DNA of 64,000 nt from Candidatus Helarchaeota archaeon (GCA_019058315.1 JAHPZH010000003.1:524451-588450); one strand, 5' to 3'; shown: positions 2,189 to 53,728, numbered from the stretch's first letter. The notes: a model not told the origin generated them from the letters alone. Made by a program: numbers and translations.

Positions 2189-3142
2189 TTATTTAATACT
2201 ATCTTTAATAAGATAATAGCAAAGCGCCCCAAATGCTTTATCCACATTATCCCCCGTTTTTGCAGATGTTTCAAGATACGGCAAATTTAATTTTTTAGCT
2301 AACTTAGCTGCTTTTTCAAAACTTACTTTTCTTTCTAAATCGATCTTATTACCGATAAGCATAATTAGGAATTTATGTTGTAGAGGCGCAGATTCCTTTA
2401 ATTCTTCAAGCCAATTTGAAATATTTTCGAAAGTTTGCGGTCGACTGACATCATAAACTATGACTGCAGAATCTGCACCTTCTAAATAAGTTTTGCGTAT
2501 ATTTTTAAACATTGTCTGACCTGATAAGTCCCAAATATTCAGAATCACAGAGATATTTTCTGAAAGTGTATATGTCTTTTTTTGAATCCCCACACCAATA
2601 GTAGATTTATAATCCTCATCAAATTTTTTCTCTATAAAACGTCTTAATATGCTAGTTTTTCCTACACTTTCAGTACCAAGAATTACTAGTTTAAAGAAAA
2701 AATCAGTTTTTTCCTTCATTTGAGGAAGTTGGAGATCAAGTGAAATATTTGGAACTTCATAATCGATTAATTGTTGGATTTTTTCAGCAACAATATAGGT
2801 CCAAGGGAGGATTTTGTCCGTATCCGAGCCAGGTCTAACTAATGTTATGAGAAAAGCTTTTTTTCCAGCTTGTGTAAAAATTAATTGTCCTTGTTCTGTG
2901 GTGACTATAGCTCCTAAATGACCACCTTCACCTGATAATTCTCTTTTAATCCGATTAGCAGCATTACTTAAAGCACCACTACAAGCAGCAATTGTGAGTT
3001 CTTCCTCCTCTTGAGTAATTGATGAAGCAATAATAAGCCCACTTTTATCCATAATAGCAGCTACTAAAATACTATGAATATTTAAATAATTATCTAAAAG
3101 AATGTTAAGCTTATTACCAAGTGTTTGTTGCACAAAATCCAC
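2189..3142 (-). CDS. Roadblock/LC7 domain - Rab-like small GTPase fusion (copy 1)
   Basis: N-terminal Roadblock pattern (AAIMDKSGLIIASS...IAACSGALSNAANRI); G1 GTESVGKTS, switch I YKSTIGV, G3 WDLSGQ, G4 GNKID, G5 ETSAK. Confidence 0.92.
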   Translation of the reverse strand: MDFVQQTLGNKLNILLDNYLNIHSILVAAIMDKSGLIIASSITQEEEELTIAACSGALSNAANRIKRELSGEGGHLGAIVTTEQGQLIFTQAGKKAFLITLVRPGSDTDKILPWTYIVAEKIQQLIDYEVPNISLDLQLPQMKEKTDFFFKLVILGTESVGKTSILRRFIEKKFDEDYKSTIGVGIQKKTYTLSENISVILNIWDLSGQTMFKNIRKTYLEGADSAVIVYDVSRPQTFENISNWLEELKESAPLQHKFLIMLIGNKIDLERKVSFEKAAKLAKKLNLPYLETSAKTGDNVDKAFGALCYYLIKDSIK

Positions 3143-3356
3143 TACTTATTATAAGAATAAATATTGAAGATAAATCAATAATACTTAATTTAAATATTTT
3201 TATAGTTGCCTTTAAGAAATCCTCAATTTAATTATTTAAAGCATTGAGAATCTCTTTAATTTTTATACAAAAATTTGAGAAAATCTCTAATTACTAATAA
3301 AATTAAAAAAAATACTTTTTATTAAAAGATTGAAAATTTAAAATTTTTTAAATTAC

Positions 3357-4289
3357 TTATCTAACACTATCTTTAATCAGGTGATAACAGAGTGCCCCAA
3401 ATGCTTTGTCAACATTATCTCCAGTTTTAGCCGATGTTTCAAGATATGGAATTTTTAGAGCTTTGGAAAAGTTTTTAGCCTCATCGAAACTCACCATTCT
3501 ATCCAAATCGATTTTGTTACCTATTAACATTACGATAAATCTACTTTGTGCTCTCATAGGTTCTTGAAGCTCATCAAGCCAGTGATTAATGTTTTCAAAC
3601 GATGCCGGTCTTGTTACATCATAAACAAGGACTGCAGATTGTGTTCCTTCTAGGTAGGTTTTCCGTATATTTCTGAACATTGCTTGACCCGCTAAATCCC
3701 AGATATTCAAAGTTACTGATACACTATCAGAAAGATCATAAGTTTTATTAAGTATCGAAACCCCAATAGTCGATTTATAATCTTGTTTAAACGATTTTTC
3801 AATAAATCTTCTTATTAAACTGGTCTTACCAACTGCTTCATCCCCGAGAACTACAAGTTTAAAGTTAAATTTTTGTGGATCCGTCATTTTTGGAAGTTCA
3901 AGGGACAGATCTAAATTCTCAAGGTCAATTAATTGTTGAATTTTTTCTGCAACAATATAGGTCCAAGGAAGGATTTTGTCCGTATCAGAGCCAGGTTTTG
4001 CCAAAGTAATGAGTACAGCTTGGTCTCCAGCACGAGTAAAAATAAATTCTCCTTGTTCTGAGGATACTATTGCACCTAAATGGTATCCTCCCGATAATTC
4101 ATCTTTAATTCTTTCTGCTGCTGTAGCTAATGCACCACCACAAGCAGCAATCGTCAGTTCCTCCTCCTCTTTAGTAATAGAAGAAGCCATCATTAACCCA
4201 TCATTGTCAACTATAGCTCCAGCTCTAATATTGGGTATTTTTAGGTAATTTTCTAATAACGTATTTAGTTTATCTCCGAGGGTTGTCAT
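3357..4289 (-). CDS. Roadblock/LC7 domain - Rab-like small GTPase fusion (copy 2); start revised to ATG 4289
   Basis: Close paralog of 2189..3142; GDEAVGKTS, YKSTIGV, WDLAGQ, GNKID, ETSAK; GGAGG just upstream of ATG 4289 (MTTLGDKLN), which aligns with the paralog start better than the ORF-track start 4337. Confidence 0.92.
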   Translation of the reverse strand: MTTLGDKLNTLLENYLKIPNIRAGAIVDNDGLMMASSITKEEEELTIAACGGALATAAERIKDELSGGYHLGAIVSSEQGEFIFTRAGDQAVLITLAKPGSDTDKILPWTYIVAEKIQQLIDLENLDLSLELPKMTDPQKFNFKLVVLGDEAVGKTSLIRRFIEKSFKQDYKSTIGVSILNKTYDLSDSVSVTLNIWDLAGQAMFRNIRKTYLEGTQSAVLVYDVTRPASFENINHWLDELQEPMRAQSRFIVMLIGNKIDLDRMVSFDEAKNFSKALKIPYLETSAKTGDNVDKAFGALCYHLIKDSVR

Positions 4290-4407
4290 TTCAATTTCCT
4301 CCAATTTTTCATTATTAAATTTAATATAAAAATACAAATATTAGTTTAATTTTTTAATTCATCCTCATATATTTTATATTAATAGATTATTGATAGGTTA
4401 GCTACCT

Positions 4408-5472
4408 CTAAATTACTCTCTTAATTCTTAGCAATTTTTTTTTCTGATATTTTTTAAGAATTTCATTTACTTTTATCAAAGGCAAATCAGATTTTTTACA
4501 AATATTTTCGATATTATTTGTTCCATCACATAAACGCAATACTTTTAAATCCAAAAAAGGTAATTTCTGCTTCCCAAGTTTTTTTACTAAGAAAGGTCTC
4601 CTTTGAGCATACTTTTTAGGTTTAGGTTTAATCTCTTTTTTAGTAATATCTTTTGGTGCTGTTTTTTTAGTAGACTTTTCAATCATTTTAAGTAATTCGG
4701 CTTTTTTAGTCGTAACGGAACTTGCTTCACCAGTATCAGGAATATCAACATGATTTATTTGGGTTGCCTCTTCTTCTGATTGAGAATATGCTTCAACCTC
4801 TGTTTGAAGCTCCATCATTTTTGTTAACTCTATCATTTCTTCGCACCATTTTGCCATATCGAATTCCTCTATAGCTTTGAATAAATTTATTGCTTCATTA
4901 AAATGACTTATTGCTTCTTTGTAATACCCTATAGAAAGTGCCCATTCAGCGTTTTCGATAGATTCTTCAATTTTAGCTTTTTTTAACTTTACTTCTGGAG
5001 AGTCAATCTCTTGAATTGCCTGATATTGTTCAGAAGCAAATGTAGCGTCAGAAGTTATAGACAAACCTTTTGCGGTATCTTGAACAATATTATCAATTGC
5101 TAATTCAAATGGTTTCAGTATTAAAACATCTTGGTTACTAAGAGCCTTATCGGCAAAACCTAATTTCACAAAGGAAGTTAAAATATTTCCAAGAAAAATT
5201 TTTGCATCTACCTCATTAAAACCCAAGTCCATTGAAACTGCAATTATAAAGTAATCTGAAATGCTGTAGAAAAATTTTTTGGAGCCCATGGTCACCGCTT
5301 TTACGTAATCCCCACCAGTCACTTCTGCAGAAAAATTAATTATTGCAGTAAGCAGACCACTGAATAAATTAGAGTCTATTTTTTGTGTTTTATCATAATT
5401 TTTATGAATTAAACAGACTCCACTATTCTTATCTATTATCCAAACGTCACCAATCAAAGAGAATAATTCCAT
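4408..5472 (-). CDS. Longin-like domain + TPR/MIT-like helical bundle + C-terminal winged helix (paralog 1)
   Basis: N-terminal VWIIDKNSGVCLIH...DSNLFSGLLTAIINFSAEV (Asgard-type longin); helical AEWALSIGYYKEAISHF; C-terminal DLKVLRLCDGTNNIENIC...VNEILKKYQKKKLL. True start may be TTG 5457. Confidence 0.8.
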   Translation of the reverse strand: MELFSLIGDVWIIDKNSGVCLIHKNYDKTQKIDSNLFSGLLTAIINFSAEVTGGDYVKAVTMGSKKFFYSISDYFIIAVSMDLGFNEVDAKIFLGNILTSFVKLGFADKALSNQDVLILKPFELAIDNIVQDTAKGLSITSDATFASEQYQAIQEIDSPEVKLKKAKIEESIENAEWALSIGYYKEAISHFNEAINLFKAIEEFDMAKWCEEMIELTKMMELQTEVEAYSQSEEEATQINHVDIPDTGEASSVTTKKAELLKMIEKSTKKTAPKDITKKEIKPKPKKYAQRRPFLVKKLGKQKLPFLDLKVLRLCDGTNNIENICKKSDLPLIKVNEILKKYQKKKLLRIKRVI

Positions 5473-5583
5473 TTATTTAGTTATTATAAATTTATTTTAT
5501 TACTGGAATTAATTCTTTTTGGTTTATTATCAAATTAATATTGTAATTCAGATAGGTTATTAACAATATTTTTTGTTAATATG

Positions 5584-6537
5584 CTAAATAGAAGTCTTTT
5601 TATATTCAATGAATTTATTTTTTTGGTACTTTTGCAGTATTTCTTTTACTTTTGTTAAAGATTTATTTGTCAGTTTACAAATTTGTTCAACAGTGCGAGT
5701 TCCATTACATAAACTAAGAATTTCATTATCAATAAAAGGCATTTTCTTTTTACCAAGTTTTTTAATTAATATTGGGGTTTTTTTTGTAATCTCATGTTTT
5801 TCATCAGGAATTGATTGCATTTCTTTTTTTTCTATTTTTGAAAAAGCTTCGATTTCTTCTTCCAACTCCACCATCTTGATTTGCTCAATCATTTCATTAC
5901 ACCAGTTTGCCATATCGAATTCCTCTAGCTCATTAAATAGAGTTATTGCAGTTTTAAAATGGGCAAGTGCATCTTTATAAAAACCTTTACTTAGTGAATG
6001 CTCTGCTTTTTCTATAACCTCTTCAATTTTTGTTTTCTTTAATTTTACATCTTGAGAGTCAATTTCTTGTGCTGCAGGATATTGATCAGACAGATTTTCT
6101 GCAACATTAGGAATTACAGCTAGACTTCTTTTAGTATTTTTAACGATTTTATTAATTGTTATTTCGAAGGGTTTCAATTGTTTAAGATCTTTTTCGGCGT
6201 CTTTAAGAGCTTTATCGGCATAACCTAACTTTATAAATGCGGTTAAAATATTTCCGAGGAAAATTTTTGCATCCACTTCATCATAGCTCGGATCCATTGA
6301 TACTGCAATTATAAAATGATCGGAAATGCTGTAAAAAAATTTTTTGGAGCCCATAGCTACCGCTTTTACATAATCACCCCCAGTAACTTCAGCAGAAAAA
6401 TTTATGATCGCAGTTAGTAGACCACTAAATAAATTAGAATCAATTCTTTGTAATTTATCATAATTCTTATGAATTAAGCAAAGTCCGCTACGTTTATCAA
6501 TAATCCAAACGTCACCAATCAAGAACAATAATCCCAT
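5584..6537 (-). CDS. Longin-like + TPR/MIT-like + winged helix (paralog 2)
   Basis: Longin domain nearly identical to paralog 1; same central helices and C-terminal LSLCNGTRTVEQIC motif. True start may be TTG 6522. Confidence 0.8.
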   Translation of the reverse strand: MGLLFLIGDVWIIDKRSGLCLIHKNYDKLQRIDSNLFSGLLTAIINFSAEVTGGDYVKAVAMGSKKFFYSISDHFIIAVSMDPSYDEVDAKIFLGNILTAFIKLGYADKALKDAEKDLKQLKPFEITINKIVKNTKRSLAVIPNVAENLSDQYPAAQEIDSQDVKLKKTKIEEVIEKAEHSLSKGFYKDALAHFKTAITLFNELEEFDMANWCNEMIEQIKMVELEEEIEAFSKIEKKEMQSIPDEKHEITKKTPILIKKLGKKKMPFIDNEILSLCNGTRTVEQICKLTNKSLTKVKEILQKYQKNKFIEYKKTSI

Positions 6538-6678
6538 TTAATATTTTTAATTAATCTATTTTATTATAAGAATAAAATTCTGATAAATATTTTATGATTA
6601 ATTGAAATTTGAATATAAAAAAGCGAAAATAGAAAATATTAATTTGTATAAATTTTAAATTTAGAAATTCGAATTTTT

Positions 6679-7782
6679 TTATTGAAAAGCTCGTTTCATT
6701 CCAATTAATTTCTTTTTATGATATTTTCGGAGAATTTCACTTACTTTTAATCTGTTTAGTTTAGTTTTTTTACAGATATCATCGACAGTGTGGTTGCCAT
6801 CACATAAAGGGATTACTTTTGAATCTAATAAAGGAAATTTCTTAGCTCCAGTTAGAGGTCTTAATAAATACGGAATCCTTCGAAATTGAACTGAAACATC
6901 TTTCTTTTTTTCTTGTTTAATAGGTTCTACGGGTTTAATTGGTTCTTCAGTTTTAATCGGTTCTTGATAATTAGTGGCTTCTTTAGTTTGAGTAGATTCA
7001 ATAGGTACTGGAGGTGCTTGAAATGGAACGGTAATTTCTTCTATTTTTTCGGGGCTTTTTTTCGTATCAAGTAAGACCGTTTCTCTTACTGGAAAAGGAG
7101 GTAATTTTGCAATGATTTGAGTTTCTTGAGTTTCAAATTGCTTAGCTTTTTCTATCATCTCCGTACACCATTCAGCCATATCATTCTCTCCAAGTTCTCT
7201 GAATAACTCTTCTGCAACGTGAAAGTATATTATAGCGTCCTTATATAGACTGTTTGCTAATGCCCACTCTGCATTCTCAATGGCTTCTTCAATTTTTTGT
7301 TTTTTCATACGAACTTCTGGTGTGTCTGTTTTTTCGGCAAGTTGATATTGTTCATTCAAGAGATCTCCGTAATCTTGCCTGATTGTTAAGATGTTGATTG
7401 CATCTTGAACAATTATATCAATTTGTTGTTCAAATGGTTGAAGTGCTAAGGTATCTTGAGTAGTAAGTGCAATTTCAGAATAACCCATTGTAATAAAAGA
7501 ATTTAAAATATGATCAAGGACTGGTTTTGCGTCAAGCTCATTGAATCGTTCTTCCATAGAAATAGCAATGATGAAATTAGTAGAAACTCTATAGAAAAAT
7601 TTGTTAGACCCCATAGCAACTGATTTTATGAAATCTCCACCTGTTATCTCTTCGGAGAAGTTGATTATGGCCGATAATAAGCCACTGAAGAGGTTGGCAT
7701 CCACCTTCTTCAATCTCCCATAGTTTCTATGTATTAGACACAAGCCTGTCTTTCTTCCTATTACCCAGATGTTTGAAATCAA
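6679..7782 (-). CDS. Longin-like + TPR/MIT-like + winged helix (paralog 3, Pro/Glu-rich linker)
   Basis: MISNIWVIGRKTGLCLIH...DANLFSGLLSAIINFSEEI; AEWALANSLYKDAIIYF; C-terminal IPYLL...DSKVIPLCDGNHTVDDIC. Confidence 0.8.
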   Translation of the reverse strand: MISNIWVIGRKTGLCLIHRNYGRLKKVDANLFSGLLSAIINFSEEITGGDFIKSVAMGSNKFFYRVSTNFIIAISMEERFNELDAKPVLDHILNSFITMGYSEIALTTQDTLALQPFEQQIDIIVQDAINILTIRQDYGDLLNEQYQLAEKTDTPEVRMKKQKIEEAIENAEWALANSLYKDAIIYFHVAEELFRELGENDMAEWCTEMIEKAKQFETQETQIIAKLPPFPVRETVLLDTKKSPEKIEEITVPFQAPPVPIESTQTKEATNYQEPIKTEEPIKPVEPIKQEKKKDVSVQFRRIPYLLRPLTGAKKFPLLDSKVIPLCDGNHTVDDICKKTKLNRLKVSEILRKYHKKKLIGMKRAFQ

Positions 7783-7828
7783 GAATTCAGCCCAATCCCA
7801 TTGAATAAAATATATAATATTATTTATT

Positions 7829-7860
7829 ATATTACTAAAATTAATGTTTTTCGGTTTGTT
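7829..7860 (-). promoter_or_regulatory. Putative BRE/TATA-like promoter conserved upstream of longin paralogs 3 and 1 (homologous copy at ~5498..5529)
   Basis: Minus strand AAACCGAAAAACATTAATTTTAGTAATA vs AAACCAAAAAGAATTAATTCCAGTAATA, at similar distances upstream of the two paralogs. Confidence 0.35.
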
Positions 7861-7982
7861 TTCTTATATTTTTATTATAACAATAATATAACAAAAAGCT
7901 CTCGAATCTCAAAATTGGTATAAAGGAAAAGAGAATAGAATTTAAATTTAATTAATCGAAAGATTAATTTGAGGTTTATTCG

Positions 7983-9122
7983 ATGGAAGATAGAATTTCG
8001 AAAATAAAAAAAGAAATGGAATTAAAAGAGATAAATTTAATAATCTTATTTAGTTCCAGAAATATCTATTATGTTTCTGACACTGCTCAATTTTCTATTT
8101 GTGTATTACCCTTAGACGGTGAACCATTCATTTTTATAAAACGCAATTTTCAACGTGGAAAAAAAGAGACCTGGATTAAAGATGTAATAAAACTCGAATC
8201 AACCAAGGGTGTAATTCAAGAGATAAAGGATAGAAAATTAGAAATAAAGGATTTAGGGTTAGAATTGAATTTTTTAAGAGCAAATCAATACATAAAATTA
8301 TCTAAATTGCTTCCAAATAGTCGATTTATTGATATTAATCAACTATTTTTAGAAATAAGAATGATTAAGGATAAGAGGGAAATAGAGCATATAAAAGCAG
8401 CAGCAAAGGCGGTGATGGGAGCACAAAAAGTTACACGTGAATTTATAAAACCTGGTGTTACTGAAATGGAAGTTGCTGCTGAAATAGCATATGAATTAAA
8501 AAAACATGGAAGTTGGACAACACAAAGTAATATGTATTGGGATTCTAATGGATTTTGTCTTGCTTCAGGGGAGAATCTATATTCGCCTGGTGATTTTCCA
8601 ATTTTATCAGGTGTAGGGGCTTCTAAGGCAACCCCAAGAAGCGCTTCGAATCGGATTTTGAAAAATGGGGACATTTTCGTACTTGATATTGGTTCGAATG
8701 TTGAAGGCTACCATGCAGATCATGCAAGAACCTATTACATCGGAAATCCAGATTCAAAATTCCGAAAAATTTATAATATTATTTTAGGAGCACTCAAGAA
8801 TGCATTTCAATTAATAAAGGAAGACAAAACCATTGCTGAAATATTCCAAGAGACAAAAGAACGCATGGGAGAATACAAGGAATTTTTTCAGGGGTTTAAT
8901 GGATACAGACAAGGACTCGGGCATGGTGTCGGTCTTCATTTAGATGAACCGCCATATATCATTGCTAGGAATACGAATAAACTCCAAGAAAATATGGTTA
9001 TTGCTCTCGAGCCAAAATTAATTATTCCAAATTGGGGAGCAGTTGATTTGGAAGACACTTTATTAATAAGAAAAAATAAAGACCCCGAATTATTAACCAC
9101 TTCCCCTTATTTGGAATTCTAA
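7983..9122 (+). CDS. Xaa-Pro aminopeptidase / M24 family metallopeptidase
   Basis: Creatinase-like N-domain; metal ligands LDIG...YHADHART, GHGVGLHLDEPP, ALEPK, LEDT. Confidence 0.92.
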   Translation: MEDRISKIKKEMELKEINLIILFSSRNIYYVSDTAQFSICVLPLDGEPFIFIKRNFQRGKKETWIKDVIKLESTKGVIQEIKDRKLEIKDLGLELNFLRANQYIKLSKLLPNSRFIDINQLFLEIRMIKDKREIEHIKAAAKAVMGAQKVTREFIKPGVTEMEVAAEIAYELKKHGSWTTQSNMYWDSNGFCLASGENLYSPGDFPILSGVGASKATPRSASNRILKNGDIFVLDIGSNVEGYHADHARTYYIGNPDSKFRKIYNIILGALKNAFQLIKEDKTIAEIFQETKERMGEYKEFFQGFNGYRQGLGHGVGLHLDEPPYIIARNTNKLQENMVIALEPKLIIPNWGAVDLEDTLLIRKNKDPELLTTSPYLEF

Positions 9123-9333
9123 TATTTAATTTGTCCTACTTAAAACTGAAAAAGCCAGACTAAATTTATGAACTTGTTGCTATTATTAACATATACTACT
9201 TATTTTTGAAAATAATCAATCAACGGAAAAAATAATAAAACTATGTTTTATTGTAAATTTAGTTAAATCTTCTTATGAAGAATTAATATAATAGAAAAAT
9301 AACAAAAATAACAAATTTAATGGAGCAAAAATT

Positions 9334-10770
9334 ATGGTAGGAATTAGATCATATGGGGCTTATCTACCAGCTTATAAACTTGAGCGAAAAGCTATTGGAA
9401 GAGCTTGGGATTTCCCAAAAGCGCCAGGCACGAAATCGATGGCTAATCTAGACGAAGATTCAATAACCATGGGTGTTGCAGCGGCTCTTAAATGCATGGG
9501 AGATATTGATCCTAAAGAATTAGATGGTATATTTTACGCTTCAACCACTCCACCATACGTTGAAAAACAAAATGCATCTACATTAGCTTCAGTGTTAGAT
9601 TGTAGATCAGATATCTTAACTGCTGATTTTTGTAATACATTAAAGGCAGGAACAACAGCTTTACGTTCAGCTTATGATGCAATATCAAATAAGAAAGCCA
9701 AAAATATATTGATTATAGTCTCAGATAGAAGAAACCCAGAACCGGTAAGTATGTGGGAATATCAAATGGCTGATGGGGCTGTAGCTTTATTAGTATCAGA
9801 AGATGATGGGCTTGCTAGAATTGAGGGATATCATTCTGTAAATTATGAGTTAATAGGACCTTGGAGAAAAGAAGGGCAAGACTATGTCCATAGTTTTGAA
9901 GTTAAAGTCGAAGTAAAAATTGCATATGTACAATCAATGACTGCTGCAATAAAGGGACTTATGGAGAAATTTGAACTTACGCCAGAGTCCATCGACAAAG
10001 CAGCATATTATTCACCAGAGCCCAGATATCATGGTGTAGTCGCTAAAAAACTGAAACTTCCGACTAAAGCTATAGTGGATTCAAATTTCTTAGAGATGGG
10101 AAATACTGGATCTCCATTATGTTTTCAATTATTAATCAGTGCATTTGAAAAAGCGAAACCAGATGGAAATATTATTCTCGCAGGATATGGTGATGGTGCA
10201 GATGCTTTTTACTTAGTAGCCACAGAAAAAGCTAAAGAAATGAAAAATGAGAAAGGTAAATTCCAAAAACTAATTAAAAATCAGATACTTATCGAAAATT
10301 ATAATAAATATTTAGAAAATAGATTATTAGTTAAAGGTCGGAATTTCTTTGTTCGTAGATCCAGTCCTGTGACTATGTGGAGAGATCAAAAATCGGTCTA
10401 CCAATTATATGGATTTAAATGCAATAAATGCGGAATGATCCAATATCCAATAATGAACGGTAACTGTATGAATTGTATGAGTGAAGATGTTACTCCTATG
10501 AAAATGAGTCATACAGGTAAAGTCTTTACCTTCAGTTTAGATCATTTAGTCGGTGGAGAATATAAACAAACTCCAGTTCCTAGGTGTGTTGTGGATTTAG
10601 ATGGTGGTGGTAGAATTTTGTTAGATATGACAGATTGTATACCACGTGATACGTATGTCGGTCAAGAAGTTGAATTAACATTTAGAAAATATTCTGAAGG
10701 TGGAGAATTTGATAATTATTATTGGAAATGTCGCCCCATAGAAAGAAAGAAGAAAAAGGAGGCGAGCTAA
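9334..10770 (+). CDS. HMG-CoA-synthase-like (thiolase-fold) domain fused to a DUF35 Zn-ribbon/OB-fold domain; probably non-catalytic thiolase partner
   Basis: MVGIRSYGAYLP, DEDSITMG, GNTGS, GYGDGADA; canonical ACKAG nucleophile reads NTLKAG; C-terminal CNKC...CMNC and OB-fold (GKVFTFS...GQEVELTFR...YYWKCRP). Confidence 0.88.
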   Translation: MVGIRSYGAYLPAYKLERKAIGRAWDFPKAPGTKSMANLDEDSITMGVAAALKCMGDIDPKELDGIFYASTTPPYVEKQNASTLASVLDCRSDILTADFCNTLKAGTTALRSAYDAISNKKAKNILIIVSDRRNPEPVSMWEYQMADGAVALLVSEDDGLARIEGYHSVNYELIGPWRKEGQDYVHSFEVKVEVKIAYVQSMTAAIKGLMEKFELTPESIDKAAYYSPEPRYHGVVAKKLKLPTKAIVDSNFLEMGNTGSPLCFQLLISAFEKAKPDGNIILAGYGDGADAFYLVATEKAKEMKNEKGKFQKLIKNQILIENYNKYLENRLLVKGRNFFVRRSSPVTMWRDQKSVYQLYGFKCNKCGMIQYPIMNGNCMNCMSEDVTPMKMSHTGKVFTFSLDHLVGGEYKQTPVPRCVVDLDGGGRILLDMTDCIPRDTYVGQEVELTFRKYSEGGEFDNYYWKCRPIERKKKKEAS

Positions 10771-11964
10771 TTGGGACATATTAGACATGGTAGTATAAGA
10801 GATAAAATTGCAATTATAGGTGTTGGTTGCACAAAATTTGGTGAATTATGGGATAAGAACCAATATGACTTGTTAAGGGAATCTACATATGCAGCTTTTA
10901 AAGATGCCGGAATTCAAGATCCAAATAAAGAAATCGATGCAATTTGGTGCGGCATACAATATTATTTTACTGGGCTTTCAGGTGGGACTGCTGCGGATGC
11001 TATGAAACTATATGGTAAACCAGTAACAAGAGTAGAGAATTTTTGTGCTTCTGGTATGGACGCATTTAGAAATGCTTGTTACGGAGTGGCATCAGGAGTT
11101 TGTGATATTAATCTCGCATGTGGTGTTGAAAAGTTGATGGATGAGGGAAGTGCAGGGCTTCCAGGCTTTCATGAGTTTGGTCATCCAGTATTACCTATGC
11201 CGTCAGCTCCAGCAATGTTTTGTTTTGCCGCATCTCGTTCTTTTGCAGAATATGGCTGGACAAAAGAAGATCTTGCCAGAGTTGCAGTAAAAAATCATAA
11301 AAATGGAGTTGCTCATCCTAAGGCTCACTTTAGACGCGCAATAACAATAGAAGATGCTTTAAATGCACCAATGATCGCTGAGCCACTTGGTCGTTTTGAT
11401 TGTTGTGCTATGAGTGATGGCAGTGCAGCTTTGATAGTCACGACGCCTGAAATAGCTGAAAGTTACGCCCATGCCAAAGATTATGTAGTGGTAAAAGCAA
11501 ATGCCATCTGCGTTGAAACCAACTTTCCGTGGTATAATCCGAATTATAGTTTTGTGGGTTTTCCATCAACACAAAAGGCTGCAAAATTAGCATATGAAGA
11601 AGCAGGTGTAAAAGACCCCAAAAAAGAAATATCATTAGCCGAAGTTCATGATTGTTTTACTATTACAGAATTAGTTAACTATCAAGATCTATTCTTCTGT
11701 GAACCTGGTGAAGCAGCACAATGGCTCAAAGATGGACATCCGGAAGTGGAAGGTGATTTGCCAGTCAATGCATCAGGAGGATTAAAATGTTTTGGACATC
11801 CCATTGGAGCAACGGGATGTAGAATGCTTCAAGAAGTAACTCGACAATTACAAGGTAGAGCAGAAGGTATGCAAGTCAAAGATCCAGAACTTGGTTTGGC
11901 ACATAATCTTGGTGGTGCCTTTACCGTAGCATCAGTTACAATTTTAGGAAAAGGGCCTCTATAA
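10771..11964 (+). CDS. Thiolase / acetyl-CoA C-acyltransferase (SCP-x/archaeal type)
   Basis: RVENFCASG (catalytic Cys), EVHDCFT, NASGGL, GHPIGATG, LAHNLGG; abuts the upstream gene. Confidence 0.95.
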   Translation: MGHIRHGSIRDKIAIIGVGCTKFGELWDKNQYDLLRESTYAAFKDAGIQDPNKEIDAIWCGIQYYFTGLSGGTAADAMKLYGKPVTRVENFCASGMDAFRNACYGVASGVCDINLACGVEKLMDEGSAGLPGFHEFGHPVLPMPSAPAMFCFAASRSFAEYGWTKEDLARVAVKNHKNGVAHPKAHFRRAITIEDALNAPMIAEPLGRFDCCAMSDGSAALIVTTPEIAESYAHAKDYVVVKANAICVETNFPWYNPNYSFVGFPSTQKAAKLAYEEAGVKDPKKEISLAEVHDCFTITELVNYQDLFFCEPGEAAQWLKDGHPEVEGDLPVNASGGLKCFGHPIGATGCRMLQEVTRQLQGRAEGMQVKDPELGLAHNLGGAFTVASVTILGKGPL

Positions 11965-11991
11965 TCCCCTTATTTTACTTTCCTTTATCCC

Positions 11992-12010
11992 TTTTTTTTA
12001 TTAAAAAAAA
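11992..12010. terminator. Putative bidirectional oligo-T terminator between convergent genes
   Basis: T8-ATT-A8 between the thiolase (+) and acyl-CoA ligase (-) stops. Confidence 0.45.
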
Positions 12011-12022
12011 TAATTATTGTTT

Positions 12023-13717
12023 TTATGATTCTTTTTTTTCTTCCCATTCTCTAAGTTTTCTTCGAAATACTTTGCCTACAGCAGTACGGGGAAGTCTATT
12101 AATGAATTCTACTTTTCTTGGCCATTTATAACCTGCCATACGTTCTTTTGCCCATTCAATGATTTCCTGTTCTGTGATTTTCCCATCACGATATTCTTTT
12201 CTAAGTACAATAAAAGCTTTTATTGTTTCACCAATGACAGGATCCGGAACACCAACCACTCCTACTTCTAGAACTGCTGGGTGTTCATATAATTTTTCTT
12301 CTACCTCTCTAGGCATAACTTTATATCCTTTGTATTTAACCATATCCTTTGTTCGACCTTCAATGTAGAAATAGCCGTCCTCAGCCATTCTTGCTAAGTC
12401 TCCAGTTCTTAACCATCCATCAGATGTAATAGTTTTTGCTGTAGCTTCCGGTTTCTTCCAATATCCTTTCATAATCTGTGGACCCCGAATTAACAACTCC
12501 CCTACTTGATCTAATGGTAATTCTTCTAATGTCGCTGGATCTACAATCTTGGCGTCAGTATCGATTATAGGGACACCAATACTTTCAGCTCTTATTTCGG
12601 GAAGCCATTCTGGTTGTGTATGAGTTATAGGGCTTGCCTCAGTCAACCCATAACCTTGTCCCATTTTTACTCCTGTTACTTCCTCCCATCTACGACTTAT
12701 TTCGGGGGGTAAAGCTGCTGAACCTGATCCCGAGCTTTCTAAGGAGCTTAGATCGCGTTTTGTAAAATCTGGGTGATTTACGAGCATTTGGAACATTACT
12801 GGCACTCCAACAAACCCTCTTAATTTGTATGTCTCAATTGTCTTAAGGATTTCTCCAGCATCAAACGAAGTATACATGATCATCATCGCTGCTGCTGAGA
12901 GTGATATTAATACAACAGTGAAACCGAAAGTATGACATATTGGTAAGACTGTTACACTAGTAATCTTTCCAATTTCTTCTACATATCGATTCTTTGCTAT
13001 CCCCATTGTACATAATGCATCTGCTATAAGATTATTGTGAGTTAACATAACTCCCTTCGGCAATCCGGTGGTTCCTCCCGTATATAAAAGAGCCGCTATG
13101 TCATTTAATGGATCAATTTCAACTTTTGGAGGTTTAGGTTCCTTGTCTTTAACAAAATCTTCAAAAAGTATTGCATCACCTTTTGGTTTTTGGGCACCTA
13201 ACAAAATTACATTTTCAATTTCAACTTTCTCCCTAGCTTTTTTAATTGTCCTATAGTTGTCACTATGACAAAAAACCGTGTTAATATTACCAGCATCTCT
13301 TACTATATGAGCTACATCGGATTCTTTTAGTAATGGATTTATTGGAGTAGCCGCTGCTCCACATTGAGTTATCCCAAAAATTGAAAATATAAATTCTGGA
13401 CGATTGGAAGTCATAATCGCAACTGAACTTCCTTTTTTAACACCTAAATCATTATAAAGACCATTTGAAATCTTATCTGCATATAAAAAGACATCTCGAT
13501 AGGTATATTTCTTATCAGTGGGAACAAAATAAATAGCTACATTATTTGGAAAATCCTCGGCGACTTGCCGAATATAATCATTTATTGAAATTGGATCATA
13601 CTTGATGGTTTTTGGTATATCAGCAGGTTTGTAGCTATTCCAGATTCTATTTGGTCTAACATAAGGGGATTCGTTTTTATAATCGTAAATAGGCTCCCAT
13701 TTTTTTTCTTCACTCAT
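12023..13717 (-). CDS. Long-chain fatty-acid--CoA ligase (AMP-binding family)
   Basis: YTGGTTGLPKG, QGYGLTEASP, GWLRTGDL, PRTAVGKVFRR. Confidence 0.95.
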   Translation of the reverse strand: MSEEKKWEPIYDYKNESPYVRPNRIWNSYKPADIPKTIKYDPISINDYIRQVAEDFPNNVAIYFVPTDKKYTYRDVFLYADKISNGLYNDLGVKKGSSVAIMTSNRPEFIFSIFGITQCGAAATPINPLLKESDVAHIVRDAGNINTVFCHSDNYRTIKKAREKVEIENVILLGAQKPKGDAILFEDFVKDKEPKPPKVEIDPLNDIAALLYTGGTTGLPKGVMLTHNNLIADALCTMGIAKNRYVEEIGKITSVTVLPICHTFGFTVVLISLSAAAMMIMYTSFDAGEILKTIETYKLRGFVGVPVMFQMLVNHPDFTKRDLSSLESSGSGSAALPPEISRRWEEVTGVKMGQGYGLTEASPITHTQPEWLPEIRAESIGVPIIDTDAKIVDPATLEELPLDQVGELLIRGPQIMKGYWKKPEATAKTITSDGWLRTGDLARMAEDGYFYIEGRTKDMVKYKGYKVMPREVEEKLYEHPAVLEVGVVGVPDPVIGETIKAFIVLRKEYRDGKITEQEIIEWAKERMAGYKWPRKVEFINRLPRTAVGKVFRRKLREWEEKKES

Positions 13718-13882
13718 AAAAATACCTCGACTTCTTTTAAATTATTTTAATATTATTTTTATTAATAAATCCACCATTTAATTTGATTTTTTCTTATAAA
13801 AAAGGTTTAAATAATGTCACTTCTTATCTAAGAAATACTAAAAAGAAAATACCTATTTCATAGATTAAAAGAGGGAATCTTA

Positions 13883-15571
13883 GTGAGTAAAAACATTTCG
13901 GAGGAATTTATCCTTAAACATGAAGATATAGTTAGATCAATTTCTGTATCTCCAGATAAAAAATATTTAATCAGTGGTTCTCAAGATAAAACAATTAGAG
14001 TCTGGGAGTTGGAAACTGGAAATCTCGTTCATAATCTTAAAGGTCATACTGGTTGGGTATTAACAGTCGCAGTCTCTCCAAATGGAGAATATATTGTTAG
14101 TGGATCGTCAGACAAAACAATCAAAATTTGGGATCTTGAAACTGGGTTGCTTATCCGCACACTTGAAGGGCATAATCTTTATGTATTCTCCGTTGCAGTT
14201 TCTGAAGAATATATCTTTAGTTCATCTTGGGATAAGACTATTAAAGTCTGGAGTTTAAAAACTGGAAAATTAATACACACAATTAAAGGTCATAAAGATT
14301 GTGTGTATACAATAATTTTATCTCCTGATAATAATTATTTATTGAGTGGATCTTGGGATGCAACAATTAAGATGTGGGAGATAGGCACATGGAAACACAT
14401 CTGTGATTTCACAGGTCACGAGAGTGCTATTTATTCGCTTGCAATAACATCTGATGGAAGATATATCTTTAGTGGATCGGGGGATAATACCATTAAGATG
14501 TGGGATTCTAAGAATAAATTAATTATTCGCACTTTTGAGGCACATACAGATCAAATATATGCTCTTGCGGTTCTACCAGATAATAAAATTATTACTGGTT
14601 CGGCAGATAAAAGCATTTGGATTTGGAATTATTTAAATGGTTGGGCACTCGGGAAACTTACAGGATACTCAGCAATTTATTCTCTTGCAGCTCCAGGGAA
14701 ATATATTATTTGTGCATTCGAAGATAAAACAATTAAAGTATGGAATACAGATAAATTTCAAGAAGGAATCTCAATTGAAGAATTGATTAAATCACATTTC
14801 AAATTCGGACGAAGTACAGGCTATGATCTATTTAGTAAAGGTGCTTATTATCAGAATGTAGGAGATTACGTAAAAGCAATTGATTACTTTAAAAGAGCTC
14901 TTGAATATGAAATGCAAAATAGCGAAGTTTGGAATAGATTAGGAATATGTTATAGTTCTATGGGCAAGATAAAAGAAGCTATAGATTCTTTTCAAAATGC
15001 AATAAAAATTAATTCCAATGATAGTTCAATATGGATCAATATGGGTATAGCATATAGTATAACGGATAATAATAAGGCCATCGAATGCTTTCAAGAAGCT
15101 GTTAAAATTAACCCATATAATAGATTGGGTTGGTATATTATGGGATTGACTTATTTCCTTTCGGGTTCCGCTTTAGAATCTATTGATCCATTTAAAAAAG
15201 TTATAGAAATTAACCCTAATGGACTTTTTCCGTGGTATCATATTGGACTTGCACTCGCTTTTGTAGAAAAATTTGAAAAAGCAATCGAATGGTTGCAAAA
15301 AGCTATTAAAAATGATTCTTCGAATTATAAAGCTTGGATACTAATGGGAATATGTTATACCGAGTTAAAGAAAAAAGATGAAGCTATGAATTGTTATGAA
15401 AAAGCTATTAATCTATTAGAAAGTCATCTGCAAGTATTTCCTTATGATAGTGATGCGAGAATTTTCTTAAATTGGGCAAGATATAAAACAAATGTTAGTA
15501 AATATAAGTCAGAAATGCTAAAAAAGGAGAAAGAGAAAGCTAGAGAGAATATAAAAAGTTATTACTCTTAA
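13883..15571 (+). CDS. WD40 beta-propeller + TPR repeat protein
   Basis: About 7 GH...SGSxDxTI(K/R)xW repeats followed by a TPR array (W/Y..LG..Y...G....AI..F..A..INP). Confidence 0.95.
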   Translation: MSKNISEEFILKHEDIVRSISVSPDKKYLISGSQDKTIRVWELETGNLVHNLKGHTGWVLTVAVSPNGEYIVSGSSDKTIKIWDLETGLLIRTLEGHNLYVFSVAVSEEYIFSSSWDKTIKVWSLKTGKLIHTIKGHKDCVYTIILSPDNNYLLSGSWDATIKMWEIGTWKHICDFTGHESAIYSLAITSDGRYIFSGSGDNTIKMWDSKNKLIIRTFEAHTDQIYALAVLPDNKIITGSADKSIWIWNYLNGWALGKLTGYSAIYSLAAPGKYIICAFEDKTIKVWNTDKFQEGISIEELIKSHFKFGRSTGYDLFSKGAYYQNVGDYVKAIDYFKRALEYEMQNSEVWNRLGICYSSMGKIKEAIDSFQNAIKINSNDSSIWINMGIAYSITDNNKAIECFQEAVKINPYNRLGWYIMGLTYFLSGSALESIDPFKKVIEINPNGLFPWYHIGLALAFVEKFEKAIEWLQKAIKNDSSNYKAWILMGICYTELKKKDEAMNCYEKAINLLESHLQVFPYDSDARIFLNWARYKTNVSKYKSEMLKKEKEKARENIKSYYS

Positions 15572-22188: not shown

Positions 22189-23316
22189 TTATCTATAATA
22201 GTCCAAAAAAAATTCATTATATTTTTTATGTCTATTAATTTCTTCCCCTTTTTCGGTTAGTGGTTTCATACATAAAATGTAAAAATTACGGTCACTTATG
22301 AATTTCAACTTTCTAAATACTTTCATTTCATGCTGACAGCTTGTTATATGCGTTGCGAAAACGCTAGGGACTAAATTTCTTATTTTGCGAAGAATACAAC
22401 TAATAAAATCGATTTTTTGTTCCATATCCATATCTTCATGAAATCCGGCACTTGTTAAAAGGGCAACTGGTAACGTTAATAATTCATCTTCTTCATATTT
22501 GGCCGTGACAATTTCAATTCGATTATTAATTACAGCTTTTATTTCATTTTTTTCTTCTAGAATCCAAGAATAAAAATTATGCGGATCACCAAATAATGAA
22601 TTTAATAAATAAGTATTCTTATGATGTTTTTCATACCTTTTTAGTTCGTAAATTGTCGAAAGTGGAACTCTTGATTGGTAAGAATTAATGAGATCTATAA
22701 TTTTGGGATAATCTTCTATTTGGGCATCTCGGACTTTACCTTCTATATTAAATTCTGGAATATGAGAATATAAAGAAGCGATTTTTACCAATACAGGATT
22801 TACTTTGAAATCTTCCCTTAAAGCTTGTAGTCCTTGTTCTTCCATTAATTTAAGCAGATGTTTGTTTTTGCTATAGCTTTTAAAATCAAAGTGTTCCTTT
22901 AATAATTTATCACCAAAACGCCCTTTTTCTGGAAATGCCATTAAAAAATCAATTTTTTCTTCGATTGCTTTTTCAATCAATTTATTTAACAAAGCTTTTG
23001 CTATACCCTGACGTCTATATTCGGGATCTACAGCACATAACCCAAGATTTAATGCCTCAAACCGCAATTCATTATCCAGCATTATAGATTCTTGGTGTCC
23101 AAATAGTGTGCCGATTAATTTTTCTCCTTTATAAGCTCCAAAAATGAAATTTTTGGATACTTCACTTAATACGACGTCAAAATAAAATTTCGCATATTTT
23201 TCGCTCCATGGCATAGCCCCAGCTTCGACATATTCCCAAAAATATGTTTTATTAAGAACTTCTGCAATTTTAATAATTGGAAATGGTTCGACAATCCTTT
23301 TTACTTCGAAATCCAT
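22189..23316 (-). CDS. Tandem-GNAT acyltransferase, N-myristoyltransferase-like
   Basis: GNAT motif A LCAVDPEYRRQGIAKALL; second GNAT lobe beginning VRDAQIEDYPKIIDLINSY; C-terminal FRKLKF. GNAT call is secure; NMT-likeness is by recalled pattern. Confidence 0.75.
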   Translation of the reverse strand: MDFEVKRIVEPFPIIKIAEVLNKTYFWEYVEAGAMPWSEKYAKFYFDVVLSEVSKNFIFGAYKGEKLIGTLFGHQESIMLDNELRFEALNLGLCAVDPEYRRQGIAKALLNKLIEKAIEEKIDFLMAFPEKGRFGDKLLKEHFDFKSYSKNKHLLKLMEEQGLQALREDFKVNPVLVKIASLYSHIPEFNIEGKVRDAQIEDYPKIIDLINSYQSRVPLSTIYELKRYEKHHKNTYLLNSLFGDPHNFYSWILEEKNEIKAVINNRIEIVTAKYEEDELLTLPVALLTSAGFHEDMDMEQKIDFISCILRKIRNLVPSVFATHITSCQHEMKVFRKLKFISDRNFYILCMKPLTEKGEEINRHKKYNEFFLDYYR

Positions 23317-37911: not shown

Positions 37912-38646
37912 TTATATTTGGTGTAGTGCTGCAAAAAAAGAGTCAGTTTTTTCTAAAAATTTGTGTACATCTCTTATAACATGATATAAATCTTTATTCC
38001 AAATATTAATGCTAGTATTTGAGAGTAATAATTCAGTTTCAGTAGCAAAATCTGGTTTAATATCTGCTGACTGTATTATATCAGATCCCATTATATTTGA
38101 ATACATACATTCAAAACAAGTTCCAGTTAAAAGTTCAAATTGAGTTTCAAATTTTTGAAGAAATTGGTTAATCTTGGCGTTCCACTCAACAGCTATATTA
38201 TATTTTTTATATCTATTATAAATTTTAAAAGCTTCATAGAATATCTTATATTTTAGTTTTTCTAAAGAATTTTTTATTTTATCTTTCATATATATTCTAA
38301 ATTGCCTAAATGGATAAACATCATGGTCCCAATTAGTCAAATCATACTTATTTTTAAATTCTTGAAGAATATATTTCACTACTGAAGTTACTTCCTCCCC
38401 ATCATCCTCGAAATCCACAGAGATTACACCGATAAGAGGAGGTAAATGGACAAAATATAATCGATTATTAAGCATACCCATATCTGTAATTAGTTCCTTA
38501 TCGGATTTCATAAGCTCTCGAATAAAATTTAAAATTGCTGCAAAAAAACCTGAAGCTAAATCGGGATCTATTTTAAGACTCCCAACGGTAATGTCTACTA
38601 ATGATATTCCATCTTTTTCTAATAAATAGAGATTATGTACTACCAT
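37912..38646 (-). CDS. Longin-like domain protein with a helical C-terminal extension
   Basis: VHNLYLLEKDGISL...DPDLASGFFAAILNFIREL...ILQEFKNKY. Confidence 0.8.
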   Translation of the reverse strand: MVVHNLYLLEKDGISLVDITVGSLKIDPDLASGFFAAILNFIRELMKSDKELITDMGMLNNRLYFVHLPPLIGVISVDFEDDGEEVTSVVKYILQEFKNKYDLTNWDHDVYPFRQFRIYMKDKIKNSLEKLKYKIFYEAFKIYNRYKKYNIAVEWNAKINQFLQKFETQFELLTGTCFECMYSNIMGSDIIQSADIKPDFATETELLLSNTSINIWNKDLYHVIRDVHKFLEKTDSFFAALHQI

Positions 38647-52181: not shown

Positions 52182-52595
52182 TTATTTAGGTTCTTGTCTT
52201 ATTTTTCTATCATATTCATAATTCCAATCTAAATACAAAACCATATCAATTATTTTTGTAAAATCTTTAAAAACATCAATTTCTGTTAAATGGATTTTAT
52301 TTTCATACATTTTTACAAATGTACGTTGCAATGCTTTTACTTTTCTTCGAATTTCCACTTCATCGTCTTCTGTATCAATTGCAATTGCTACTACAATTTC
52401 GTCTCCTACAAAATAAAGGATTTTGATATCACCCATAACAATTGAATCTATATGTCTTTGAGTAAGCTTTTTCGAAAATGATTCAATTGCTGAAACAAAA
52501 CCAGCAAATAAAGTCTTATCTACATGGATACTACTGTAATTACGATCTAACAAACATATACCATCAATATTTAAAATCCAAACATTATGAATCAT
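52182..52595 (-). CDS. Stand-alone longin-like domain protein
   Basis: MIHNVWILNIDGICLLDRNY...DKTLFAGFVSAIESFSKKL...FVKMY. Confidence 0.85.
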   Translation of the reverse strand: MIHNVWILNIDGICLLDRNYSSIHVDKTLFAGFVSAIESFSKKLTQRHIDSIVMGDIKILYFVGDEIVVAIAIDTEDDEVEIRRKVKALQRTFVKMYENKIHLTEIDVFKDFTKIIDMVLYLDWNYEYDRKIRQEPK

Positions 52596-52604
52596 GTTTT
52601 TTCC

Positions 52605-53180
52605 TCATTCTCCTGGAGTAAATTTATTTAATTTATCTTGTAAAATTATTGCTTTATTTTTAATAATGTCAAATGCCGAGCGGGTGAACATTGTTTCTAC
52701 GACCTCACCTGTCTTGGCAGATGTCTCAAAATAATGGACCTTATGTTGCTTTGCTAATTCTATGATTTCATCAGTTTCTACTGCCCTCATTTCAAATGCA
52801 TCCAAATCAATTTTATTCCCTACAATAACAAATGGGATTTTTGCCCCGACATATTCTTTAATATCATCAATCCACTCGTTCAAATCTGTAAAAGTGTTTT
52901 TTCTAGTTACATCGCAAACCATGATTGCCCCATCAGATCCCATGAGATATGTTGAGCGGATATCTCTCCATTTACTCTGACCACCTATGTCCCAAATGAG
53001 TAATTTAATTTCTAGATTCATTTTTGGAAAATTAATTTCTTTAATTAAAAAATCAGCACCAATAGTTCCCACATAATTGTCTTTAAAATAATCCTTCACA
53101 TACCTTAAAACTAAAGATGTTTTTCCGACTCCAGGTGATCCCAGTAAACAAACTTTGAAGGCTAATCTCATAGATCGCAC
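52605..53180 (-). CDS. Rab-like small GTPase
   Basis: GSPGVGKTS, YVGTIGADF, LLIWDIGGQ, GNKID, ETSAK; no C-terminal prenylation cysteines. Confidence 0.95.
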   Translation of the reverse strand: MRSMRLAFKVCLLGSPGVGKTSLVLRYVKDYFKDNYVGTIGADFLIKEINFPKMNLEIKLLIWDIGGQSKWRDIRSTYLMGSDGAIMVCDVTRKNTFTDLNEWIDDIKEYVGAKIPFVIVGNKIDLDAFEMRAVETDEIIELAKQHKVHYFETSAKTGEVVETMFTRSAFDIIKNKAIILQDKLNKFTPGE

Positions 53181-53185
53181 AGTTC

Positions 53186-53728
53186 TTAATCGATTTTATA
53201 AATTTCAGTGTCTTTTTTATCATTTTTTTGTTTCAAGATCTTTTGTTCTTCTTTAATTTCAACTTTAGGAGGCAATTTAAAATTTTTAAAATCCGAGGTT
53301 ATTGAAGTATTTTTTTCAATTTGTTTCTTCCAATCAATTCTTTTTTTAATCAAAGGGTGAGTATTTAACAGATTTTCAACAGGATCTATAATTGTTCTAT
53401 CTTGAAATTTATTATTTTCTTCATTTATTTTCTTAAGACCAAGTGGTTTATCCTTTTGTTCGGATTTTAAGGAAGCTATTTCTCCAACATTACGGACAAT
53501 TCCTTTATCCTCTGGAGGCGCAGTTTGAACTTTAGAAATGAGATTCTCCCTATCATCTAATTGAGTTTTCCATCTTAATTTTTTTTCTAATTCGGAAGTA
53601 GGATTAAAAAAATTCAATTCCAGACCGACTTTCGTATTAGGAGAGAGATGAGAAACTACATTTGATCCAGAACAATTATTACAAATACCGTTTAAAGTAA
53701 TACTTCCACATCTTTTACAAAAATTCAT
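53186..53728 (-). CDS. N-terminal Zn-ribbon protein with a low-complexity tail
   Basis: FCKRCG...ICNNC; two similar segments LEKKLRWKTQLD / IKKRIDWKKQIE. Confidence 0.7.
   Translation of the reverse strand: MNFCKRCGSITLNGICNNCSGSNVVSHLSPNTKVGLELNFFNPTSELEKKLRWKTQLDDRENLISKVQTAPPEDKGIVRNVGEIASLKSEQKDKPLGLKKINEENNKFQDRTIIDPVENLLNTHPLIKKRIDWKKQIEKNTSITSDFKNFKLPPKVEIKEEQKILKQKNDKKDTEIYKID

Follow-up and report, generated by a model that had tools for sequence, protein, structure and literature searches.

Asgard genomes contain dozens of genes for small GTPases and for longin or Roadblock proteins, but very few of these proteins have an assigned partner. Can such partners be recognized among genes that lie side by side? 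The question is raised by five genes at positions 2189–7782 of a 64,000-nucleotide stretch of DNA from a Candidatus Helarchaeota archaeon (GCA_019058315.1 JAHPZH010000003.1:524451–588450; the whole stretch is hereafter called the window). Two of these genes encode fusions of a Roadblock domain with a Rab-like GTPase (G-A and G-B), and three encode paralogous proteins (L1, L2, and L3; collectively, L proteins) that combine a longin domain, a three-helix bundle, and a winged helix. A preliminary description of this DNA saw in the cluster an analogue or relative of the Rag GTPases and of GATOR1. Our analysis instead leads us to regard the L proteins as, on balance, probable longin regulators or adaptors of the neighboring Roadblock-Rab-like GTPases, with a winged helix that resembles the one in NPRL2.

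The host genome (5.8 Mb in 12 contigs, 94% complete) carries a very large complement of GTPase, longin, and Roadblock signaling genes. The closest database relatives are labeled as Helarchaeota, Promethearchaeota, or Hodarchaeota metagenome-assembled genomes.

Architecture of the GTPases and the L proteins

All five open reading frames (ORFs) of the cluster are on the minus strand, in a region with a G+C content of 28–32%. Their coordinates and those of their domains are as follows.

2189–3142, minus strand: G-A, Roadblock domain and Rab-like GTPase (Pfam Robl_LC7, 36.1 bits; Ras, 163.9 bits)
about 2846–3103, minus strand: Roadblock domain of G-A (Pfam)
about 2222–2692, minus strand: Rab-like G domain of G-A (Pfam)
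3357–4289, minus strand: G-B, Roadblock domain and Rab-like GTPase, 310 amino acids (Pfam Robl_LC7, 33.4 bits; Ras, 167 bits)
4408–5472, minus strand: L1, 354 amino acids; longin, acidic three-helix bundle, long basic linker, and basic winged helix
5584–6537, minus strand: L2, 317 amino acids; architecture as in L1, with the shortest linker (AlphaFold2 models and fold searches)
about 6118–6537, minus strand: longin domain of L2
about 5818–6054, minus strand: three-helix bundle of L2
about 5587–5784, minus strand: winged helix of L2
6679–7782, minus strand: L3, 367 amino acids, TTG start; the most divergent paralog
7783–7982, no strand: divergent intergenic region between L3 and an M24 peptidase gene, with an A/T-rich promoter-like element (alignments)

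The ORF of G-B extends over 3357–4337, but the ATG at 4289 is its likeliest start because the orthologs are 310 amino acids long.

G-A and G-B are 69% identical to each other. Both begin with a Roadblock domain (Pfam Robl_LC7, 33–36 bits against a cut-off of 23) and end with a G domain that matches Pfam Ras at 164–167 bits, and their G1–G5 motifs are intact (GxxxxGKT, the switch-I Thr, DxxGQ, NKxD, and SAK). The best match of the G domains among solved structures is a Thorarchaeota Rab (7ezb; E = 6e-35), followed by eukaryotic Rab4, Rab6, Rab7, and Rab1, whereas the Gtr1_RagA model scores 20–25 bits. Rag/Gtr proteins have a G domain of the Gtr1/RagA type with the Roadblock domain C-terminal to it; here, the G domain is Rab-like and the Roadblock domain is N-terminal. 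More than 1000 relatives, mostly labeled as Asgard, are present in the database, and a hidden Markov model search at E ≤ 1e-3 found the GTPase-type Roadblock domain in 20 ORFs of the host genome. Lipid anchoring of the two proteins was considered and ruled out, as neither has a C-terminal CAAX, CC, or CXC motif or a Gly at position 2.

Among the L paralogs, the other two are 65% and 47% identical to L1, and none of the three has a Pfam or NCBIfam match above cut-off. We modeled the whole of L2 with AlphaFold2 (predicted local distance difference test [pLDDT] score of 72) and, separately, its residues 155–317 (pLDDT of 86). In the models, residues 7–139 have the longin topology (beta-beta-alpha-beta-beta-beta-alpha-alpha), residues 162–240 form a three-helix bundle, and residues 253–314 fold as a beta-alpha-alpha-alpha-beta winged helix. 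The winged helix follows a disordered linker, whose length is very variable among L proteins. The calculated isoelectric points are 4.3–4.7 for the helical domain and 10–10.4 for the winged helix.

The layout given in the preliminary description is thus borne out: the five co-oriented genes, the two Roadblock-Rab-like GTPase paralogs with a domain order reversed relative to Rags, and the three paralogs with a longin, a three-helix, and a winged-helix part were all recovered, and the winged-helix consensus that it proposed (P-x-L ... LC[DN]G ... I..IC ... V.EIL) can be recognized in the alignments. The resemblance that it noted to the winged helix of NPRL2 is also borne out, as detailed below.

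In an all-against-all structural search, the L longin is nearest to the VAMP7-type longin 2dmw (Z = 14.4), Fuzzy (14.3), and Sec22 (14.0), followed by Trs23 and Mon1 (12.9) and BLOC-3 (12.4); MglB chains and archaeal Roadblock domains score about 10.5 (MglB, 10.4–10.6). Structural searches also find GATOR1 chains collinear with the L proteins across the longin and the winged helix. A Foldseek search with the full L2 model returned generic longin and Roadblock matches, with no NPRL2 or NPRL3 chain in the top 50. At the sequence level, a profile of 34 L longins compared with all sequences in the PDB matched TRAPP Bet5 (E = 4.1e-5), VAMP7 (1e-3), MON1 (0.016), and Sec22b (0.03), and retrieved no NPRL2, NPRL3, FLCN, or SMCR8 chain at E ≤ 10. 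Pfam Fuz_longin_1 is matched as well, by two of the 34 longins (best E = 3.6e-7).

Longins of the GTPase-activating protein (GAP) type carry a GP motif before strand 2 (PMC12290439) and an arginine finger (PMC12290439, PMC8534245). In the L proteins, a nearly invariant G18 does lie before strand 2, but it is followed by L, V, I, or S instead of P. The alignments contain no invariant Arg within residues 1–140, where the only conserved basic residues are K/R15 and K66. Judged from sequence and model together, the L longin does not appear to be of the GAP type, and its nearest counterparts are Bet5, Mon1/Fuzzy, and the SNARE longins.

The three-helix bundle superposes on the MIT domain of Sulfolobus Vps4 (2w2u_B) with Z = 9.2 and a root-mean-square deviation (rmsd) of 1.3 Å over 63 residues, and on the calpain-7 MIT domain with Z = 9.4, values that are common for helical bundles. 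Pfam MIT (PF04212) does not match L1–L3 at E ≤ 1, and hhalign comparison of the bundle with the host genome's own MIT domains gave a weak match (68% probability over 27 columns). We therefore use "MIT/TPR-like" as a fair description of the bundle and not as a proven assignment. Elsewhere in the host genome (contig C2:166943–168772, corresponding to L009:6944–8773, minus strand), a 609-amino-acid paralog has an L-type longin and the first helical bundle, and downstream of this shared part lie a domain that Pfam assigns to MIT above cut-off (30.4 bits) and additional repeats resembling MIT. Its neighbors are Macro-domain and FAD-oxidoreductase genes, and no GTPase gene adjoins it.

The winged helix (residues 98–161 of the C-terminal model) was compared with 48,161 representative chains. 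The two top matches are yeast Npr2 (8adl_S, residues 242–308; Z = 9.1, rmsd 1.6 Å over 64 residues) and human NPRL2 (8fw5_B, residues 172–237; Z = 9.0, rmsd 1.5 Å over 63 residues), and the next-best winged helices have Z scores of 8.0 and 7.9. In a Foldseek search with the C-terminal model, Npr2/NPRL2 chains ranked third to eighth with non-significant E-values (0.06–0.2). The ESM Atlas contains a cluster that matches with an rmsd of 1.5 Å over 66 residues and in which every member carries Pfam NPR2; querying the Atlas by features returned only unnamed archaeal clusters.

The sequence evidence points in the same direction with marginal scores. When a profile of the winged helix only (57 members) was compared with all PDB sequences, human NPRL2 (residues 168–224) was the joint top match, at a marginal E-value of 0.012, and yeast Npr2 was matched with E = 0.097. 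The NPRL2 alignment starts at the P-x-[LVF] strand and takes in L..[CI]DG...I..I, the family's defining motif, and this search also verified that the Npr2 and NPRL2 chains cited here are what their names say. In individual comparisons of the 57 members with Pfam (E ≤ 0.01), HTH_NPRL3 was matched by 22 (best E = 1.3e-6), HTH_47 by 29, and TrmB by 22. On the L proteins themselves, HTH_NPRL3 (PF24064) reaches 14.7–16.9 bits against a cut-off of 27.2, with a weak match to L3 (E = 0.029), and weak matches to this model were also obtained in 5 of 14 unrelated control genomes. Pfam NPR2 (PF06218) matches nothing in the whole host genome at E ≤ 10, and the NPR2 and NPR3 models do not match L1–L3 at E ≤ 1. 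The domain is strikingly basic, with 17–19 Lys and Arg in 66 residues. We read these comparisons as placing the L winged helix in a large Asgard family of the winged-helix clan, a family that is plausibly, though not demonstrably, homologous to the winged helix that follows the longin in NPRL2. The link to NPRL2 draws on modeled structure and on marginal sequence similarity.

The same Asgard family includes proteins of about 210 amino acids (P0044, P0031, P0040, P0054, P0058, P0074, and others), which are widespread in Asgard archaea and in which an N-terminal alpha/beta domain of ~110 amino acids precedes an LCDG winged helix; hhalign aligns the latter with the L winged helix at 99.5% probability. 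For several of these proteins HTH_NPRL3 is the best or sole Pfam match (P0044, 26.8 bits against the cut-off of 27.2), and their N-terminal domain has no hhalign match to the L longin or to the GTPase Roadblock domain. The wider kinship of the L-type winged helix may also take in two methyltransferases. A C-terminal profile that includes the helices matched only Rickettsia PKMT2 (5doo, residues 377–486; E = 8.5e-5), with no NPRL2 chain; the match falls in the regulatory region of PKMT2, via an L..LDG..I..I motif. The second methyltransferase, Rv2067c (8hkr), has a winged helix that matches in structure with Z = 7.9.

Linkage, distribution, and duplication history

Linkage of L and GTPase genes is kept in the four related assemblies whose contigs are long enough, and the flanking genes differ. 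In two of them (L001 and L002), one L gene is followed by one Roadblock-GTPase gene, with a TFIIB gene downstream and different upstream neighbors (an M24 peptidase gene in one, a DHH protein gene in the other). A third (L003) is arranged as the window is, with an M24 peptidase gene, three L genes (one of them split, 302 + 146 amino acids), and two GTPase genes.

Beyond these assemblies, a word-indexed search found nine close relatives of L2, and an exhaustive profile search retrieved 347 proteins. Most of the latter have the longin or the winged helix alone, in other architectures, and some of the winged helices in such architectures exceed the Pfam cut-offs of TrmB or MarR_2. Scans of genome and metagenome contigs with the L alignment yielded no further confirmed relative, and the L family is confined to a few related genomes.

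The quick maximum likelihood trees, in which the root of the L tree was set by distant paralogs, place G-B on a short branch together with the single-copy GTPases of the relatives and show G-A as the faster-evolving duplicate. L1 and L2 form a recent pair, whereas the clade of L3 splits off below the single-copy one (with a support of 88 in the Shimodaira–Hasegawa-like approximate likelihood ratio test). The 3 + 2 arrangement is, on these sequence trees, a lineage-specific tandem expansion of a 1 + 1 module through more than one duplication event.

The association of longin and GTPase genes is not limited to the cluster. We ran hidden Markov models of the L longin and of the G domain on all ORFs of the host genome (E ≤ 1e-3). 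The longin model picked out 49 ORFs, which fall into 43 loci, and a Ras-like G domain was recognized in 99 ORFs. Outside the cassette there are 42 longin loci, and in 8 of them a Ras-like G domain is fused to the longin or lies no more than 300 bp away; 2000 random ORF sets gave 1.27 ± 1.09 such loci and never more than 6.

A second pair of this kind is present in the window. A 137-amino-acid longin protein (52182–52595, minus strand), 30% identical to L2 (E = 4e-16), is encoded 9 bp from a stand-alone Rab-like GTPase of 191 amino acids (52605–53180, minus strand; Ras, 153.8 bits), which is 38% identical to the G domain of G-A. Together with the gene for a 180-amino-acid protein (53186–53728), which has no family match and no similarity to the L profile, the two genes make up a tight three-gene unit (52182–53728; gaps of 5 and 9 bp), which has the look of a small variant of the GTPase and longin theme with its domains unfused. 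Elsewhere in the window, a 244-amino-acid protein without a Pfam match (37912–38646, minus strand) is weakly matched by the L-longin profile (E = 2e-6; 8.8e-4 in the genome search); its gene is flanked by a C13-peptidase-like gene and a DHH-family gene.

Synteny with one of the Helarchaeota-like metagenome contigs continues past the cassette (L001:1–9808 versus window 7983–15571). In that contig, the L gene has beside it, in this order, genes for an M24 peptidase, an ACP_syn_III-like protein, a thiolase, and two AMP-binding ligases, with a double-GNAT gene further on. The annotated M24 peptidase gene of the window lies beside the cassette at 7983–9122, and the window ORFs at 9334–15571 match the L001 genes in size. 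A 375-amino-acid protein encoded further along the window (22189–23316, minus strand) has generic GNAT matches in Pfam (Acetyltransf_1, 41.9 bits) and no NMT match at E ≤ 0.001.

The element noted upstream of L3 consists of an AAACC-A-rich block followed by a TATA-like block. It recurs upstream of L1 (5473–5583) and of L2 (6538–6678) and is kept in the L003 locus, which suggests separate promoters for the cluster genes. Because of this repeated element, and of gaps of 111–223 bp between the genes, we speak of a cluster and not of a tight operon, and co-transcription is not implied. A promoter and terminator scan of the region, which used the bacterial consensus only and is uninformative here, gave 30 sites where 34.7 were expected and no terminators.

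Proposed role of the L proteins and alternative explanations

Bet5 and Mon1 are longins of Rab guanine nucleotide exchange factors (GEFs). Because the L longin resembles these two, an exchange-factor-type platform, or an effector, is a likelier role for the L proteins than an arginine-finger GAP. In the mechanism that we propose, the L longin domains would pair as homo- or heterodimers, and such dimers would dock the neighboring GTPases and regulate or read their nucleotide state, while the helical bundle and the winged helix might bring in other partners or a surface. What we infer in this scheme, and what should be read as conditional, is the physical binding, whether the L proteins act as GEF, GAP, or effector, their dimerization, and the ligands that the helical bundle and the winged helix may have. 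Longin and Roadblock dimers are established platforms for GTPases (PMC10933270, PMC12290439), and both gene types have been amplified in the same locus. A predicted complex of G-A with full-length L2 scored 0.00, a value that, obtained without controls, counts neither for nor against binding.

Several observations weigh against this assignment. The spacing of the genes and their separate promoter-like elements are not those of a single operon. Of 151 genomes that were sampled from the class, only two contain full-length L relatives (E ≤ 1e-30), namely the host genome and another from its family. The linkage does not extend beyond a shallow clade, in which the GTPases are 70–85% identical; GTPase orthologs at ~50% identity (P0164, P0166, and P0174) have no L neighbor, although one of them retains the TFIIB neighbor, and the more distant longin and MIT paralogs do not adjoin GTPases. 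The synteny that the preliminary description had asked about is therefore present in the four related assemblies and lost around the more distant orthologs. Finally, the winged helix is very basic, and its relatives match the DNA-binding TrmB and MarR models.

The narrow linkage, the promoter-like spacer before each gene, and the unlinked distant paralogs could mean that there is no functional coupling at all and that the L and GTPase genes are neighbors by descent, passengers of one segmental amplification. We judge this to be very unlikely: the L–GTPase pair persists while both of its flanks change, the copy numbers differ (three versus two) and the trees indicate separate duplications instead of one block, and L-type longins are enriched beside GTPase genes across the genome. 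The charge of the winged helix leads to another alternative, in which the cluster encodes a transcription regulator wired to a GTPase, the winged helix binding DNA (for example, its own repeated promoter element) and the longin sensing the nucleotide state. The Lys and Arg content, the TrmB matches of 22 of the 57 family members, the homologous winged helices elsewhere that exceed the TrmB or MarR_2 cut-offs, and the conserved element repeated upstream of the L genes all fit such a regulator. The closest structures, however, are protein-binding (NPRL2/Npr2 and RPC39), with DNA-binding MarR-type chains scoring lower; the repeated element has no clear dyad and resembles an ordinary A/T-rich archaeal promoter that was copied with the duplication; and no terminator or operator features were found in a scan limited to the bacterial consensus. 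We consider the DNA-binding explanation unlikely.

The remaining alternative is the one advanced in the preliminary description, that the cluster is a true archaeal relative of Rag and GATOR1, in which the L proteins are homologs of NPRL2 and NPRL3 that form longin heterodimers and act as a GAP on a GTPase heterodimer. Its strongest part is the winged helix, for which Npr2 and NPRL2 are the top structural matches, clear of the next-best at Z = 8.0; they also rank high in Foldseek, are represented by the all-NPR2 Atlas cluster, and are matched by the profile over the signature motif, while HTH_NPRL3 is matched by 22 of the 57 family members. The collinearity of GATOR1 chains over longin and winged helix, and the presence of several L paralogs and two GTPase paralogs from which heterodimers could be built, would also suit it. 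Against these stand the longin, which is closer to those of Bet5, Mon1/Fuzzy, and SNAREs, has no sequence match to NPRL2, FLCN, or SMCR8, lacks an invariant Arg, and has its GP motif reduced to G; the absence of a Pfam NPR2 match anywhere in the genome at E ≤ 10; the weak HTH_NPRL3 matches in control genomes and the equally frequent matches of the family to HTH_47 and TrmB; and the missing NPRL2 C-terminal domain. In addition, the GTPases have Rab-like G domains and carry Roadblock at the N-terminus. The resemblance to GATOR1 is supported for the winged helix and not for the longin and the GTPases. The preliminary description had warned that the winged helix might match generic HTH or PqqD profiles only; its matches are not confined to these, but no curated threshold is passed. 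The proposed Rag-style heterodimer of two GTPase paralogs is not supported: the GTPase duplication is lineage-specific and therefore implies no such ancient heterodimer, and the relatives with one longin gene and one GTPase gene argue against an obligate pairing of paralogs. As a whole, the Rag/GATOR1 explanation appears improbable.

We return to the L proteins as regulators or adaptors of the adjacent GTPases. With its three longin proteins and two GTPases, the cassette supplies genetically matched candidates for direct expression and assay, and it connects an Asgard winged-helix family to the GATOR1-anchoring domain of NPRL2 in a concrete way that can be tested. A bolder extension, which we regard as a long shot, is that the abundant Asgard LCDG winged-helix family was the source of the post-longin winged helix of NPRL2/Npr2 and that the L and GTPase pair is a surviving prokaryotic regulator and GTPase module of the lineage ancestral to GATOR1-type complexes, in which longin dimers would control GTPases and the winged helix would dock a third component.

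Comparison with known systems

Bet5/Trs23 of the TRAPP core, Mon1-Ccz1, Fuzzy-Inturned, and BLOC-3 share with the cluster the longins nearest to that of L (Z = 12.4–14.3) and GTPases of the Rab type. In contrast to GEFs of the TRAPP and Mon1-Ccz1 type, L has a single longin, is neither a tri-longin nor a multi-subunit assembly, and has an added MIT-like bundle and winged helix. MglA and MglB are a bacterial Ras-like GTPase and its Roadblock regulator, encoded in one operon. Common to both systems is a small GTPase linked genetically to a regulator of the Roadblock/longin fold, but here the GTPase is Rab-like with the catalytic Gln in DxxGQ, the Roadblock domain is fused to it, and the partner is a multidomain longin protein. 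With Vps4-type MIT domains, L shares the superposition of the bundle (2w2u_B) and differs in that L1–L3 have no Pfam MIT match at E ≤ 1.

NPRL2 and NPRL3 (GATOR1/SEACIT) have, like L, a longin followed by a collinear winged helix (about residues 168–237 in NPRL2). L differs from them in the three-helix bundle inserted between these domains, in ending right after its single winged helix without the C-terminal domain through which NPRL2 and NPRL3 pair, in a longin that is not of the GAP type, and in a neighboring GTPase that is Rab-like with an N-terminal Roadblock domain and not a Rag. The cluster contains no DEPDC5-like large gene (the search for DEPDC5 covered the cluster and not the whole genome). 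Rag/Gtr GTPases are obligate heterodimers of two old paralogs; G-A and G-B are 69% identical, their relatives are single-copy, and G-B groups with those.

Fusions of a Roadblock domain with a GTPase are well represented in Asgard archaea. In strain MK-D1, 26 of 74 small GTPases are fused to a Roadblock or longin domain, including fusions in the Roadblock-GTPase order (Tran et al. 2024, PMC10933270), and a conserved operon of Roadblock, Rab-like GTPase, and DENN genes, as well as NPRL2-like Asgard proteins, was described by Liu et al. (bioRxiv 10.1101/2020.10.19.343400). G-A and G-B share with the Asgard fusions the N-terminal Roadblock domain, the Ras-superfamily G domain with intact G1–G5, and the Thorarchaeota Rab as best match; they differ in that a specific partner gene, for a longin, helical, and winged-helix protein, accompanies the fusion gene and has been amplified together with it. 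Roadblock-GTPase fusions, NPRL2-like Asgard proteins, and neighborhoods of GTPase and longin genes have already been published. What is particular to this cluster is that a GEF-type longin occurs in one protein with a winged helix of the NPRL2 type and a three-helix bundle inserted between them, that this protein is paired with Roadblock-fused Rab-like GTPases, and that both genes have expanded in tandem to 3 + 2.

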